Part shown: in pieces, positions 39,001 through 45,000 of the stretch
How the letters are laid out: each line of letters opens with the position of its first letter
Numbering within the stretch: the first letter of the stretch is position 1
From: Candidatus Calescibacterium sp.
GTDB lineage: Bacteria > Calescibacteriota > Calescibacteriia > Calescibacteriales > Calescibacteriaceae
Assembly (NCBI GenBank): GCA_032249135.1
Contig: JAVVGL010000002.1
Span: 64,001-128,000, forward strand
DNA: 64,000 bases
Direction: 5' to 3'
Made by a program: the position numbers

Positions 39001-42000
39001 CCCTTTTTTCTCCTCTTTTTTCTCCTCTTTTTTCTCCCTCTCTTTCTCCCCACTTATAAAAAAGAGTTTTTCTTATATCTATTTGTATTGGCATAGACTC
39101 TATTTTTATCTCAACATCAAATAAACCGCCTAAAAAACTTATATCTTCCATATATTTTAAAAGTTCTTTTTTGTTTTTGATAATTTTTGAAATCTTTCTT
39201 ATTACTTTTTTGAATACTTCTTGTTTCTCTCTGTATTTTCCGGCTAAAACTCCCAAAATGACTTCTTCTGGCTTATTACTTCCTAAAAATTCATCAGGGT
39301 CTATTTTCTTCAAATCAACAACTTTGAATTTAAGGAATTTAAATTCTGACCTGAAATAAGAAGGAGTAGGATTTCCCTTACCCACAAATAAAACTATCTG
39401 TACAGGTTCTTTGCCGAACTTCTCTTCAATAACAACAGAATATATAAGCATTCTTTTGGGTAAAGTTTTATCTTGTTGAGCTTGGATTTCAATATGGAAG
39501 ATTTTATCACCGGCTTTAAAGAGCATATCTGGTCGGAGGGATTTGAGGAACTTTACTTCCTGAGTTATATCTTCAAGTTTTTCCTTTATTTTCTCACCAG
39601 TGGCTATTGAGATAATTTTTCCTACTGCCCCTGAGAAAATTTCTTTTAAGACAAGGTCAAACCTTCTTAATTCTCTTTTCCGCTTATATTTTCTTTTTTC
39701 TCTTTGATGTTCTCTTTTATTCTTCTTCATTCCAAAATTTTTTTGCATTTCACTTATTGCGGAATAAAGTATCTCGTTTATTAATTAATTTTACTTTTTT
39801 TGTTTTAGTGGCTTATATCATTTGTTTTATCTCTAAAAGTTTTTTGATTTGTTTTGCTTCTGAACCCAGATTTTGCGTGGTAAATCTCAGAAAATTCCTC
39901 CTTTTTATTTGAAAGTCTATGCAATTTTAACAATAGACTTTTATAAAGAGAAATAAAGAGAAATAAAGAATAAACTTTAAGATGATAAAAGGATTATTCT
40001 TTCTTTTATGAATTCATATGGCGGTAGCGGTAAGTATTTCCCATTTATATAATAGACACGACAACTCAACCCAACTGGATTTTGCTTCGCTCCATCTTCA
40101 TCTATATCTTTGCCGTTCACAAGGATGGTTGGCGAACCGGGGAACTTTTTCAACATAGCCTCTTCATCTGTCTTCACTTCCTCCAATATCACTTCAACTG
40201 CTTTTCCTTCTTCTTTTAGCTCTTCTGCTACTTTATTTACTCTTTCTAATGCTAACTGCCAGCTCGGACATTCTTTCCAGTAAAGAACTTTTATAACTAT
40301 TTTTCTCTCGCTCATCAGTCAAAATATCAATTTAATGTTTTCGTTTTTTTAAAATTTCAAATATGGAAATTATGGGATTTCTTTTGAAGATTTTTATTTC
40401 AATCTTTGTTCTTGCAGCTTTCCTTTTCGGCTCACTTCTTATCATGAAAAAAAAAGGTATATTCTTCCCACCCTTGATGAATGACAACAATAATATTCAA
40501 GTTCAATCACATATAAAGCTCACTCCGAAGGCTCACCTTTTCGTTGTCAAAATAGATCAAACCAAAATCCTTGTTGGAGTAACGGAAAAAAACATTTCAT
40601 TTTATCAGATGAAAGAAAAAGAATCTGAATGAAAGGAAAAAGAATTTGACTAAATTTCAAGTATATTAAACATGGTCAGAGTTTTTGAAAGTTCAGTTGT
40701 GAAAAAAGAGGAAGTATCAGCATCAACTTTCCTTGTAGAGATGAAGGGAGATATAGATTTTGAGCCAGGGCAGTTTGCGATGATATCTTTACAGGATGAA
40801 ATTTCTGTTATCCCAAAGCCCTTCTCTATATTTTATTCAAAAAATGGAGTTTTTTCGGTACTTTTTAAAGTGTTTGGAGGTTGGACGGCACGATTTTCAA
40901 AAGTAAATATAGGAGAAAAAGTTAGAGTGGTAGCTCCATGCGGAACCGGATTTTTGACCGCTATGAGAAGGTATGAAATTCCTGAGCCCAAAAATATTCT
41001 TTTTATTGCAGGCGGATTAGGAATAGCCTCTTTGTATCCTGTAATTGATTTTTTTGGAAAATCAAAAAGCTCTCTGATTTTCGGAGGAAGAAGCTCCCAA
41101 GACATAATTTTGAAAGACAAAATTCCTGAAAAAGTAAAAACTCTTTACATTACAACACAAGATGGTTCAGAAGGCAAAAAAGGCACAGTTATAGATGCTC
41201 TTTTTGAGATTTCACCTTATGATTTTGATGTTGTTTTAAGCTGCGGACCTTATGGCATGCTCAAAGCACTCTGGGAATTTTGGACGAAGAACAAAATAAA
41301 CACACCTTTACTTTTTGCCATGGAAGAAAGGATGGGATGTGGTTTAGGTCTCTGCTTTTCTTGCGCAATAAAAACAAAAGATGGTCCAAAACTCTGCTGC
41401 ACTTATGGACCTGTTTTTTCGCACTCTGAACTCATTTTCTGAATTTTCGGATATTTTCATATTGAAGATTTATATTTTTTTATATCAAAATTTGGCGACG
41501 TAGCCAAGTGGTCTAAGGCGGGGGATTGCAAATCCCTTATTCCCGGGTTCGAATCCCGGCGTCGCCTCCATCTTCTTCCTATACTAAATTATGATAAGTC
41601 CCGAGAAACTTCAAAAAGCTAAAATTTTCATACAAAAAATAGATGAGCTCAAGAACGAAATTCTGAAAATAGATGAAAAGCTCTCCCAGGAATTTGATGC
41701 TTCTTTACTTGAAAAAAGAGGAAAAATTGAGGAGAAAGTTGAGAAATTTGAACAGATAAAAAAACTTATGAAAGACCTTGAAGAAGTCGAAGATATAATA
41801 TCATCTGAAAGTGATCCAGAAATTATTTCTTTGGCTCTGGAAGAAAAAAAATCAATTGAGAAAAATTTAGAAAAGCTCATTCACGAAATCGAGGAATTGG
41901 AGGAAGAAAGCAAAAGAAAAAAAAGAGATTCTTGCATAGTTGAAATAAGGGCTGGAGTTGGAGGAGAAGAAGCTGCTTTATTTGCTGCTGACCTTTTCAG

Positions 42001-45000
42001 AATGTACTCAAAATTTGCGGAAAAAATGGGATGGAAAACAAAACTAATATACGAGAGAAGATCAGACCTCGGAGGAATAAAAGAGATCTCGTTTATAATT
42101 GAGGGAAAAGGTGCGTACGATTTTATGATAAATGAAGCAGGTGTTCACAGAGTTCAAAGAGTTCCAATTACAGAGGCCTCAGGTAGAATTCATACATCAA
42201 CTGCTGCTGTTGCAGTCCTTGAAGAACCAGAAGATATTGAGATAAAGATAGACCCAAAAGATTTAGAAATTGAAACTTTTAGAGCATCTGGACCAGGAGG
42301 TCAGCATGTGAACAAAACAGATTCAGCCGTGAGAATAAGACATATTCCAACTGGAATAGTTGTTGTGTGTCAAGATGAAAGATCTCAACATATGAACAAA
42401 GAAAAAGCTTTGCGACTTCTTAAAGCAAAATTGTTTCATATAGAGAAAGAAAAGTTAGAGAAAGAAATTTCTGAGAAGAAAAAACAACAGATAGGTTCAG
42501 CGGAAAGGTCGGAAAAACTCAGAACCTATAATTTCATGCAAAACAGAGTAACAGACCACAGACTTGGTGTGACTTTATATCGCCTTGAAGATATATTAGA
42601 CGGAGATTTAGATTTGCTGTATAAAGCCTATCAGGAAGACAACAAAAAATCAAAAGGAGCAGAAAAAGATTGACTGGTCAGAAAGATTGTCAGAAAGATT
42701 GATTATTTTTTTATTATTCCACAACTATTTTTACAAATCTTGTTTTTCCCACCCTGACTTTATATTCTCCTTTTTTCAGTTCAAAGAATTTTTCCTTTAT
42801 CCTTTCTCCATTGATATATATTCCTCCCGATTCTGTAAGTCTCATAGCCTCAGATACACTGCTTACTATTCCAGATTCTTTCAAAACCTTCTGCAATATA
42901 CTTCCTTCTTTTACGCGTATTTGGGGAATTTCGTCGGGCATTTCTCTTTCTCTTATGACTTTGTCAAACCAGTCTTTTGCCCTCATAGCTTCCTTTTCTC
43001 CTTTGAGTCTTGCCGTTATCTTATAAGCTATTTGAGTTTTTGCTTCAAATCTCGGGATTTTTTTGAGTTCTTCTAATTCTTTTTGTTCATATCCTCCCAA
43101 AAGCTCAGCATATTTGAAAATCAGCATATCGTCTATACCCATAAGTTTTCCGAATATATCTTCCGCCGGTTCATCTGGTGTTATGTAGTTTCCATAAGAT
43201 TTTGACATTTTGAGTTTCCCGTCCGTACCTTCTAAAATTGGAGTTGTTATGCAAACCTCCGGAGGTAGTCCGTACTCTTTCATTATCTGGCGCGCAAATA
43301 TAAGATTGAAAAGTTGATCGCTCCCTCCAAGCTCTATATCTGCCTTTACTACAACAGAATCATAAGCTTGCAAGAACGGATATAAAAATTCATGAACAAA
43401 TATTGGTGCTTTCTCTTGCATTCTTTTTTTGAAATCTTCTCTTGCTATGATTTGGGCAACTGTTGCTTTTGAAAATAGCTCAAAAAGTTCAGTTGTGCTC
43501 ATAGATTTAAACCAATCCGAGTTAAAATAAACTCTTGTCCTTTCTTCAATAAGAAACCTCATAACTTTTTTAAGAATTTCCTTTGCGTTTTCTTTTACCT
43601 CTTCCTCAGAGAGTTTTGGTCTCAAAGTCGTTCTGCCGGATGGATCTCCTATTTGTGCTGTAAAATCTCCTATTATGAGACAAACTTCATGTCCCATCTC
43701 CTGAAACTCTCTAAGTTTGAAGATTAAAACAAGATGCCCAAGATGTATAAGTGATGCGGTTGGATCTATTCCAAGTTTTACTCTCAAAGTTCTTCCACTT
43801 TTTAAAAGTTTTTCAAGTTCCTCTTCCTCCACTATTGATATGAGTCCTCTTTTTATCTTTTCCAAACCGTTTTTTTTCTTTTGATTTTTTTCTTCTTCAT
43901 GCATCATTTCTATACCATGATTTTTTCTTTCATGTTTTTGCTCCACAACCATTTTTTTATTTTAAATTTATCTTTTCTCAAACTCTTAATTTTCATTTTT
44001 GCTTTCCTTAATTTAAAGGGAAAGATGAAAGATTTCATTTATAATTTTCTTTTTTTGAGATATAGGAGTTTTTTTCCCAGATTTTTACTAATTTTTTTTC
44101 TCAGATTTTCGCTCTTATTTTCACTATTTTTACTTTTTCATCCGTTCTTTTTTTTCTTTCCTGTGCTTCAAAAGGAATAAAAGGTTTGAAAGTTCCCGAA
44201 CTGGAAATAAAAGAGATAAAATTTGATGAGAATGGAAACCTTATTTTTTCCGTATCCGGTGTAAAGGAAATATTAATATGCTCTGATTTTGAGGAGAAAA
44301 ATTGTGAATCTAAATGTGAATCTGAAAGCGAATGCAAATCTATAAAAGTTAATTCTTTGTTTTCTTCATCTTCTTTTGAAATTTCAAAACCCAAAAATTA
44401 TTCACAAATTAGAGTTTTATTAGTGGGATTTGGAGGGAAGAAGAAAGAGTTCATTTTAAATTTTGTTGAAAGAAAAGTAGTTGATAAGAAAAAAAATAAA
44501 AGATAGATTCATATTACTCCAAGTTCTTTTCCGACTTTGTAAATTTTTTCAAGGGCAAAATCTATATGTTCCTGTGTATGAGTTAGCATTATAGAAGTTC
44601 GCAGTAGAGATTCCCCTTGCGGAACAGCCGGTGGAATTACACAGTTTGTATAGACTCCTTCATCAAATAGCCTTTTCCAAAACATTATAGCTAAAACTTC
44701 TTCACCGAGTATTATTGGGACTATTGGGGTTTGAGAATTTCCTATGTTGAACCCTGCTCTTTTCAGCTCATTTCTATAATATTCTCCTTTTTTCCTCAGT
44801 TCCTCAACCATATCAGGATTTTCTTTCATAAGCTTCAAAGATGCTCTTACTGATGCGACACAGGGTGGAGGCAAAGCTGCGGAGAAAATCATAGGTCTTC
44901 CAAAATGCTGAATGAAATCAATAACATATTTTTCTCCTGCTACAAAGCCTCCAATTGAAGCGAATGACTTTGAAAACGTCCCCATGATTATATCAACCTC

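Follow-up and report, generated by a model that had tools for sequence, protein, structure and literature searches.

What selects the start codon of a bacterial protein gene that directly follows a tRNA gene, with no Shine-Dalgarno (SD) site between them? The question is raised by the tRNA-Cys-prfA locus of Candidatus Calescibacterium sp. (genome G000), which lies in the window analysed here, a 64,000-nt stretch of contig JAVVGL010000002.1 (Table 1).

Results

Protein genes start at a set distance behind tRNA genes

A preliminary description of this genome had placed an open reading frame 8-23 nt downstream of 25 of its 45 tRNA genes. Counting coding starts of at least 50 aa with a positive dicodon score, and measuring the gap from the discriminator base, we obtained 26/45, i.e. 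one more. Twenty-two of the 45 tRNAs have a protein start at 8-13 nt, and none has one at < 8 nt. Gaps behind stop codons in G000 are distributed flatly, with 306/1856 at 0-25 nt and 81/1856 at 8-13 nt; short gaps are thus rarer there than behind tRNAs, as had been claimed, and the binomial probability of 22/45 at the post-stop rate is ∼2e-18. Given these flat post-stop gaps, we rejected general genome compactness as the cause, which the preliminary description had considered. Its claim that relatives share the pattern was borne out by full tRNA sets, in which the 8-13 nt class comprises 20/45 (G003), 22/44 (G004) and 21/46 tRNAs (G006).

Pooled over this hot-spring family, 106 cases gave gaps of 7 nt (2 cases), 8 nt (7), 9 nt (37), 10 nt (24), 11-14 nt (28) and 15-23 nt (8), a histogram with a steep near side, a mode at 9-10 nt and a more gradual far tail. 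Starts closer than 8 nt were moved to the second in-frame start where this lay within 6 nt; counted in this way no gap is < 7 nt, as against 5/106 by first-start counting. The spacing persists through spacer turnover and partner swaps, and it is independent of CCA encoding in both lineages described below (10.2 nt with and 9.9 nt without encoded CCA, p = 0.64). As judged from these genomes, the start codon stands 8-13 nt past the discriminator, and this distance is kept or re-made when the partner gene changes.

Five of the 45 G000 tRNAs have an upstream stop codon within -10 to +9 nt of the tRNA start. Eleven of the 26 leading tRNAs come after a divergent gene and therefore open their own transcript. 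The data support the view that tRNAs head protein-coding units and that the arrangement is under selection. Inspected by eye, the flanks of tmRNA and RNase P RNA have no clear start at 8-13 nt; the tmRNA is followed by a start at 20 or 29 nt with a weak coding score. Contigs from two RNA runs (two studies) cover the entire tRNA-Pro and trxA; being assemblies that may include DNA, are blind to processing state and represent 1 of 26 junctions, they point weakly to tRNA and protein gene sharing one RNA. The contigs' uncovered stretches and uneven depth were given no weight.

tRNA-led loci in the window and their partners

Table 1. Features of the tRNA-Cys-prfA locus and of other tRNA loci in the window.
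Feature	Position	Strand	Basis
Dihydroorotate dehydrogenase electron-transfer subunit-like gene	40672..41442	+	Matches below curated cut-offs
tRNA-Cys(GCA), G1 to discriminator U73, prfA leader	41494..41567	+	ARAGORN, sequence, acceptor stem 7/7 pairs
23-nt spacer: encoded CCA (41568-41570) and G-free pyrimidine/A tract, without SD site	41568..41590	+	
TATACT, -10-like hexamer at -11	41580..41585	+	Sequence
prfA, release factor 1, 360 aa, ATG start	41591..42673	+	NF001859, 415 bits (cut-off 400)
tRNA-Gly(CCC)	47906..47977	-	ARAGORN
13-nt A/C spacer, CCA encoded, tRNA-Gly to in-frame ATA	47893..47905	-	
Rsm22-like methyltransferase ORF, 394 aa, inferred ATA start	46708..47892	-	PF09243, 52.5 bits; alignment with G003 orthologue
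tRNA-Asn(GTT), contrast case, next gene start 213 nt downstream	2806..2882	+	

tRNA-Cys precedes prfA at 7/7 family loci, compared with 0/23 other prfA loci. The pair had been put forward as an example of the pattern and is real, but its gap of 23 nt is atypical: G001 has 24 nt, G002-G005 have 9 nt and G006 has 6 or 9 nt, so that five relatives cluster at ∼9 nt. The spacer is unpaired in the centroid fold and weakly paired in the minimum free energy fold. The TATACT within it lies just off the genome's peak for such hexamers (-15 to -12) and is not conserved, and a consensus promoter scan called no promoter in this spacer; the hexamer is probably incidental. On the same strand, the dihydroorotate dehydrogenase electron-transfer subunit-like gene ends 51 nt 5′ of the tRNA.

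The window holds a further case that had not been counted. tRNA-Gly(CCC) starts 9 nt past an upstream stop codon and leads the Rsm22-like gene across a spacer predicted to be unpaired 3′ of the CCA. The first canonical start of this gene is 80 codons inside, behind sequence conserved in G003; we infer a start at the ATA, where a sequencing error is possible. It is one of several genes that apparently begin with CTG or ATA behind a tRNA, another being ispE (CTG).

The partners previously named were confirmed by scanning PrfA from the window, and orthologues from G003/G006, against protein families: prfA, hslV, mreB, trxA, rtcB, dnaX, lapA, a pfkB kinase, DUF2203, band-7, M50 and YfiO/BamD. Trp-secE and Gln-prs are also among the pairs. 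The pair Leu-bamD stands insofar as bamD follows a Leu tRNA, but the isoacceptor differs, being Leu(CAG) in G000 and Leu(TAG) in G004/G006.

Weak start codons without Shine-Dalgarno sites

The spacers had been described as leaving no room for SD sites, and indeed none of 106 reaches anti-SD pairing of -3.4 kcal/mol or better. Nor does the acceptor strand serve as an SD: only 9/106 regions reach -5 kcal/mol, and they share no common motif. Across G000, SD use is 19-24% of 334 starts, not above the coding-sequence control; a GGAGG peak at -14 to -10 falls in the register that N70-N73 occupy at a 9-nt gap. Short-leader-type genes make up 62/324 clean starts in this genome, their -10 hexamers being most frequent from -15 to -12. 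Where a tRNA lies 8-13 nt ahead, the register of that hexamer, 6-8 nt before the start, is filled by the acceptor strand. The tRNA-led genes show neither the -10 hexamer nor the confinement to AUG/GUG by which primary leaderless mRNAs would be recognized.

TTG starts 27/106 tRNA-led family genes. It is enriched approximately tenfold (p = 0.0003); within G000 it occurs in 6/26 tRNA-led genes vs 0/62 -10-led genes. For HslV the TTG is pinned by the N-terminal Thr, position 1 of the family model being residue 2. Since near-cognate starts are found at the same place as the enriched TTG, a positional cue is needed. The pattern also corrects gene starts (TTG, CTG, ATA) that callers had missed or extended into tRNAs. 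In G104, and in G000 (third positions, p = 0.0002), the first 20 codons of the led genes favour C over G; in G003 and G004, where the local control sets were small, this skew did not reach significance. The idea that weak starts hold back expression from the promoters of tRNAs in high demand was rejected, there being no correlation with demand (rho 0.04, p = 0.82); led and never-led tRNAs did not differ in demand either (p = 0.44). Metagenome contigs carry real genes composed of tRNA, 1-2 nt and TTG. There the tRNA must be cut off, because only 1-2 nt separate it from the TTG, and we dropped TTG as proof against cutting.

The same spacing in a second lineage

The spacing rule also holds, with other partner genes, in a genus that belongs to a different phylum (G104, G263); 21/43 tRNAs of G104 are in the 8-13 nt class. 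A search to place G104 by EF-G gave no match at threshold. Other phyla yielded single cases only (9/157 tRNAs checked). This survey examined some matches per genome and left out G018; false positives, mostly U-rich trailers, were discarded in G029, G036, G059, G095, G098, G114, G129, G066, G055, G111, G192, G194, G216, G030 and G167. The Thr-to-tuf gap is 78 nt in G129 and 130 nt in G116.

Processing enzymes and trailers

The reported lack of RNase Z was upheld: no protein scored over the TIGR02651 cut-off in 7/7 family genomes or in G104/G263, genomes that are 82-90% complete, and the best family score was 50.5 bits (cut-off 293). A remote 257-aa metallo-beta-lactamase remains. Genes for RNase P RNA, RNase E/G and Rho were found in 5/5 family genomes, and RNase Y and RNase J in none of the five searched. 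Of RNase E/G, Y and J, the one searched for in G104 was RNase Y, which is present, so that the two lineages could share a nuclease. Simple sequence motifs for RNase R and RNase III gave no match, a search too weak to show absence.

Position 74 is C in 175/180 family tRNAs and CCA is encoded in 81/180, a combination that fits exonucleolytic trimming. RNase E-like motifs show no clear excess in the spacers (38/98 vs 16/53), which have no conserved cut motif, and by eye none of the G000 trailers folded contains a terminator-like hairpin followed by a run of U. A general rule of pairing between leader and trailer was rejected, 84/98 having 0-1 extra pairs.

Discussion

The reading we favour, at about even confidence, is that the message is translated with its tRNA attached, that the ribosome sets the distance and that the tRNA is freed later. 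tRNA genes would be the 5′ leaders of protein-coding transcripts, and the chimeric RNA would be translated while the folded tRNA is still in place. The 30S subunit would load onto the unpaired A/U spacer, with the acceptor helix taking the place of the SD-antiSD helix and coming no closer than ∼8 nt, and this hard boundary could define the start sharply enough for TTG and GTG, and now and then for CTG/ATA, to be used. RNase P would generate the 5′ end of the tRNA. Its 3′ end would form later, once RNase E/G has cleaved the message or Rho has terminated a transcript that is not being translated, and PNPase/RNase PH may then trim to about C74 before CCA repair. Because the same spacing occurs in the family, with RNase E/G, and in G104, with RNase Y, a ribosome ruler is simpler than two nuclease rulers. 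Further points in favour are the steep near side of the gap histogram, the GGAGG register, the independence from encoded CCA, the trimming-like pattern at position 74 in genomes where no RNase Z was found, the lack of a clear RNase E-like motif excess and of terminator-like hairpins alongside Rho, the C-over-G skew in G000 and G104, and the bridging contigs. Against the attached-leader model stand the delayed supply of a tRNA held on a message, the possibility of a nuclease common to both lineages, the lack of a significant skew in G003 and G004, and weak starts that do not track tRNA demand.

Alternatively, the message may be cut first. RNase E/G, or RNase Y in G104, would cleave a few bases past the acceptor stem and leave a 2-6 nt leader for short-leader initiation, the gap being the sum of nuclease trailer and minimal leader; this would amount to tRNA punctuation in a bacterial form that dispenses with RNase Z. 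We regard it as possible but somewhat doubtful. RNase E of E. coli cleaves 1-3 nt past CCA (PMC2190699), and the enzyme family is present throughout the family genomes searched. A message cut to a 3-6 nt leader should be translatable, because short-leader-type genes are common in G000, and this speaks against the attached-leader model; the abutting tRNA-TTG class indicates that initiation at TTG is possible close to a cleaved end. Yet the spacers lack a conserved cut motif, the gap is unchanged in the lineage with RNase Y, and the RNA contigs bridge the tRNA-Pro/trxA junction. The distribution of TTG, absent from -10-led genes of G000, also argues against cutting first, as do the Deinococcus deserti counts taken from PMC4007540, where TTG starts 0/916 leaderless mRNAs and 3/258 mRNAs with 1-5 nt leaders.

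Passive compaction, in which deletions eroded ordinary trailers and promoters, genes came to depend on the tRNA's strong promoter, and the tRNA plays no part in start choice except as an obstacle, seems improbable to us. The wall and tail of the histogram are what erosion down to a limit would give, few starts anywhere in the genome use an SD, and single cases do occur in other phyla; against this, post-stop gaps are flat, only 395/1856 G000 genes have a neighbour at -30 to +25 nt, and the enriched TTG and near-cognate starts call for a positional cue. Finally, the tRNA 3′ half and trailer might act as DNA promoter elements that give the protein gene a separate leaderless transcript. G000 has many -10 boxes of the leaderless type and TATACT does occur in the Cys-prfA spacer, but that hexamer is off-peak and not conserved, the -10 position at a 9-10 nt gap is GC-rich acceptor strand mostly without TAnnnT, and TTG is absent from primary leaderless genes. 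We consider an internal promoter very improbable.

The preliminary description had proposed a tRNA-punctuation-like way of making near-leaderless mRNAs. What holds of this is that tRNAs head units under selection; what is not supported is the geometry and the enzyme. In mitochondrial tRNA punctuation, tRNAs are excised by RNase P and RNase Z/ELAC2, and AUA starts are used. As there, the tRNAs described here are scattered, each alone in front of a protein gene, with no SD and with apparent near-cognate starts, and a gene for RNase P RNA is present. Unlike there, no RNase Z was found, the spacer is 8-13 rather than 0-3 nt, CCA is encoded in part of the tRNAs, and many units are separately promoted, as those opening a divergent unit illustrate. 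Mixed tRNA-mRNA operons are known from E. coli (thrU-tyrU-glyT-thrT-tufB, metY-rimP-nusA, tRNA-Trp-secE). They resemble the present units in a promoter that, here too, tRNA and protein gene probably share, in the presence of RNase P and of enzymes of the RNase E family, and in the Trp-secE pair itself; they differ in being few loci with long leaders, whereas here half of the tRNAs lead at a fixed 8-13 nt and the protein genes have no SD site of their own after the tRNA.

For plant dicistronic tRNA-mRNA transcripts, we know of no fixed start-codon distance. Those transcripts, as outlined in PMC8166872, join tRNA and mRNA on one RNA, as is probably the case here, but are eukaryotic, with a proposed role as mobility signal. 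The leaderless and short-leader mRNAs of Deinococcus-Thermus and Actinobacteria (PMC4007540, PMC12340547) are matched by the -10-adjacent class of G000 (peak at -13) and share SD-independent start choice at a 5′ boundary; the tRNA-led class differs from them in lacking a -10 box there and in its frequent TTG. Structured 5′ leaders that dock on the 30S platform, such as thrS and standby sites, provide a precedent for a fold 5′ of the start codon being accommodated without having to open (PMC3936740). These sit upstream of an SD, while here the helix is in the SD register and belongs to a complete functional tRNA.

In a stronger form of the attached-leader model the tRNA would actively promote initiation: the acceptor helix would dock in the 30S platform pocket instead of the SD-antiSD helix and select a start at 9-10 nt, be it even UUG, CUG or AUA. 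We think this unlikely. If true, about half of the tRNA genes in two phyla would serve initially as ribosome-positioning leaders and yield tRNAs only upon destruction of the message, so that the supply of tRNA would depend on mRNA turnover, and a third bacterial route to the start site would exist beside SD-led and leaderless initiation.

A rule that applies across the genome and has been re-made repeatedly ties tRNA genes to SD-less start choice in organisms where no RNase Z was found. It bears on the way in which bacterial messages without an SD define their start codon and on the closest approach of a stable helix to the P site, and it suggests a compact tRNA-leader expression part. It also leads to the prediction that the abutting class (0-2 nt) goes with RNase Z and the 8-13 nt class with its absence, so that the presence of RNase Z would decide the geometry.

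A narrow gap between tRNA genes and protein genes

We placed the discriminator base (N73) of all 45 tRNAs of the source genome (G000) from the T-loop, and took as the led gene the first frame of ≥ 50 aa that looked coding and began with ATG, GTG or TTG; the gene set came from a purpose-made dicodon caller, not a standard annotator. The gap from discriminator to start codon was 8–23 nt for 26 of the 45 tRNAs, bearing out the preliminary description that over half lead a protein gene at this distance. It was 8–13 nt in 22 and below 8 nt in none; with two candidate near-cognate cases included, led tRNAs number 28 of 45. 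Gaps found by the identical rule after 1856 predicted stop codons were flat, at ∼12 per nucleotide, with 81 at 8–13 nt (p ∼2e-18). A start on the same strand followed within −30 to +25 nt for only 395 of 1856 genes. The genome is thus not packed unusually closely, and the earlier concern that general compactness explains the pattern falls away.

The genome (2.10 Mb, 34% GC, 87% complete), of which the window covers positions 64001–128000 of contig C2, has six relatives in its family, spread over three genera. Its PrfA is closest, among named records, to those of Ca. Calescibacterium nevadense (87%) and bacterium HR19 (74%), which places it in the Calescamantes, a hot-spring lineage according to an excerpt of PMC4791363. 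As first described, tRNA-Cys lies directly ahead of prfA in the window, with a gap of 23–24 nt in G000 and G001, 9 nt in G002–G005 and 6 or 9 nt in G006.

Features located in the source genome, and alternative partners of four tRNAs in the family
Feature	Location	Detail
tRNA-Cys, discriminator U73	window 41567	
prfA start	window 41591	
ATA after tRNA-Gly(CCC)	window 47892	gap 13 nt; candidate start of a 394-aa Rsm22-like protein
Five tRNAs beginning −10 to +9 nt from an upstream stop codon	window 47978–47986; C3, C9, C10	Gly-CCC, Val-CAC, Phe, Tyr, Val-GAC
tRNAs with a convergent gene ending ≤ 6 nt from, or overlapping by 19 nt, the 3′ end	C12, C14, C23, C31	Met(initiator), Arg(TCG), Leu(GAG), Leu(TAG)
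Metallo-beta-lactamase, 257 aa	L050:1387–2157 (C13)	
tRNA-Pro ahead of trxA	C20:24500–29000, at 2521–2592	9-nt spacer
RNA contig, run X2	same region, 257–2649	
RNA contig, run X3	same region, 614–2649	
Site where RNA contigs part from the genome, upstream of tRNA-Pro(GGG)	L358:2640–2649 (C20)	
Lys(CTT)		DUF2905 or GAPDH, both at 10 nt
Glu(CTC)		ferritin or another gene, presumably acyl-CoA-synthetase-like
Ser(GGA)		helicase or SmpB
Leu(TAG)		BamD or aldo-keto reductase

Conservation of the distance in the family and beyond

Complete tRNA sets of three relatives gave gaps of 8–13 nt in 20/45 (G003), 22/44 (G004) and 21/46 (G006). Pooling yielded 108 cases of ≤ 25 nt, of which two from G004 were removed, one frame being antisense and the other continuing across the next tRNA. 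Where a first start gave a gap below 8 nt and another start in frame lay ≤ 6 nt away, the latter was used instead. The remaining 106, which come from kin genomes and are not independent events, comprised two gaps of 7 nt, seven of 8, 37 of 9, 24 of 10, eight of 11, 11 of 12, four of 13, five of 14 and eight of 15–23 nt. By our reading of the tRNA sets, 21 of the 26 source pairs recur in G004 or G006, which belong to other genera, confirming that pairs are kept across genera; the N-termini have shifted and the spacers are unrecognisable in sequence. For nine tRNAs or more, the partner differs between genomes but the distance is unchanged (Table), so the distance is a rule taken up by new neighbours and not only inherited synteny.

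The tRNA sets showed further peculiarities. We did not find Arg(ACG) in G000, G003, G004, G006 or G104 (a genome of another phylum), all of which carry Arg(GCG) and Arg(TCG) in its place. Three relatives have Pro(TGG), which is missing from the source genome, probably through an assembly gap. Some tRNAs closely abut upstream or convergent genes (Table), and those for Tyr and Gly-CCC have close neighbours at either end.

A survey pattern (T-loop, G-free run, start at 8–13 nt), blind to gaps below 7 nt and to G-containing spacers, matched 15–21 times per family genome and at least 10 times in 13 of 244 others. Its ATG-only version, blind also to TTG-rich genomes, gave at least eight matches in three of 394 other genomes: G104 (17), G263 (10) and G095 (8). 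G104 had gaps of 8–13 nt in 21 of 43 tRNAs and of ≤ 25 nt in 28, mostly with ATG and nearly all with different partners; six of its proteins are already recorded with exactly these starts. All 10 matches in its congener G263 lead frames of at least 96 codons. This genus is assigned to another phylum by its kinship label (16S identity 77%), and convergence with the source family is likely. In the remaining flagged genomes a gene followed at 7–14 nt for nine of 157 tRNAs examined, three of them in G205. There, three tRNAs (L468, L477, L489) lead genes at 9–13 nt, which we take to be birA-like, secE-like and recO-like; G205 is a possible third, partial case.

Start codons and translation signals

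The 106 family cases start with ATG (61), TTG (27) or GTG (18). In the source genome six of 26 led genes begin with TTG; the codon is rarer among the 324 other clean starts (9; p=0.0003) and does not occur in the 62 genes that have a −10 box immediately upstream. These TTG starts are genuine, since that of HslV, at 12 nt, directly precedes the catalytic Thr in four of four genomes. Several more tRNAs lead frames in which a conserved N-terminus begins upstream of any canonical start and a near-cognate codon, the putative start, occupies the usual place. For Leu(CAG)-ispE of G004, CTG lies at 11 nt, the match to the family model begins at residue 3 and no canonical start occurs before residue 17; for Ser(TGA) of the source genome, CTG lies at 11 nt, where orthologues carry ATG at 8–10 nt. 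Besides the ATA in the window (Table), further candidates follow Arg(TCT), Val(CAC) and Val(GAC) of G006, Leu(GAG) of G004, and Ala(GGC) and Lys(TTT) of G104; each putative start comes from one assembly. Coding-like upstream extensions occurred in 37 of 1141 genes genome-wide, many of them where a contig ends or a frameshift is apparent.

The 16S anti-Shine-Dalgarno (anti-SD) sequence is intact, and GGAGG peaks at −14 to −10. SD sequences precede only 19–24% of 334 clean starts, no more than in a coding-sequence control. The −10-like hexamer TAnnnT peaks at −13 (37 of 334 starts versus ∼10 elsewhere), a sign of a sizeable putative leaderless-type class in this lineage. The 106 family spacers are A/U-rich and G-poor, share no common motif, and contain no SD, in keeping with the first account. 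Led genes are rich in C and poor in G over their first 20 codons, third positions included, in G000 (p=0.0002) and G104; against small local controls the skew was not significant in G003 or G004. This bias could mark a site where Rho loads, or it could serve to keep these codons from pairing with the tRNA.

RNA-processing enzymes and transcripts

Short RNase E/G, RNase P RNA, PNPase, RNase PH and Rho are present in five of five family genomes, in none of which RNase J or RNase Y scored over the cut-off. IF3 was found in six of six genomes, and the source genome has S1 and an enzyme of the CCA/poly(A) polymerase family. As in the first account, no RNase Z was found, here in any of seven family genomes, candidates having been scanned; the G104/G263 genus likewise gave no RNase Z match and has RNase Y. 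The best but weak match to the RNase Z model (45 bits versus a cut-off of 293) was a family-conserved metallo-beta-lactamase adjoining an mnmE-like gene in G000 (Table). C occupies position 74 in 175 of 180 tRNAs (G000, G003, G004, G006), with complete CCA encoded in only 81; in G104 the figures are 24 and 6 of 43. The gap is the same whether CCA is encoded (10.2 nt) or not (9.9 nt), so the acceptor helix is the point from which the distance is measured.

The organism is present in hot-spring metatranscriptomes. One contig each from runs X2 and X3, of two studies, spans the entire tRNA-Pro, spacer and trxA, which weakly supports co-transcription at this one of 26 junctions, such contigs showing neither ends nor strand and possibly including DNA. 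Upstream, RNA contigs of three runs diverge from the genome at 2649 (L358), one rejoining it at 2640; the strains behind them seem to carry an insert, with a 10-nt overlap and imperfect inverted repeats at its flanks. One end of this putative insert resembles a tRNA 3′ end. Of three probe motifs, two do not occur in the source genome, and the third occurs there only elsewhere.

Initiation with or without the tRNA

Two routes of initiation fit these results. The ribosome might initiate while the tRNA is still on the message, that is, on a tRNA–mRNA chimera, a reading in which we place as much belief as doubt. Extracts of two papers locate the SD 7–9 nt ahead of the start codon (PMC13000457) and describe a 30S platform able to hold hairpins without unfolding them (PMC3936740); from these, an acceptor helix ending at −11 or −12 would be about the nearest that a helix can approach the start codon. 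Alternatively, RNase E/G may sever the tRNA before initiation, as in E. coli, where the cut falls 1–3 nt after CCA (PMC2190699, in part), giving a leader of 3–6 nt. We think this rather unlikely. Initiation on the chimera is favoured by the sharp near edge of the gap and its indifference to CCA, by the lack of a cut motif in the spacers, and by the occurrence of the same gap in a lineage with RNase Y. The frequent TTG starts of led genes also speak against cutting, TTG being nearly absent from leaderless mRNAs in the consulted portion of PMC4007540. This argument is weakened by metagenome loci that match a tRNA, 1–2 nt and TTG, which make TTG beside a cut end possible: nine of 80 open frames of at least 80 codons, and in roughly five of these a tRNA was called and the protein is plausible. 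On three AT-rich metagenome contigs (L503, L514, L537), tRNA-Val(GAC) and 2 nt precede a TTG opening a 362-aa frame.

A full-text search, with most subscription papers and supplements outside its scope, returned no published description of this arrangement in bacteria. Single tRNA–mRNA operons and mitochondrial tRNA punctuation are known systems. The proposed likeness to punctuation stands for the arrangement, but the RNase Z and the 0–3 nt gaps that mark punctuation were not found. The tRNA-led genes of this family probably work like a tRNA-headed operon, and initiation on the chimera and initiation after cutting may both operate in one cell.
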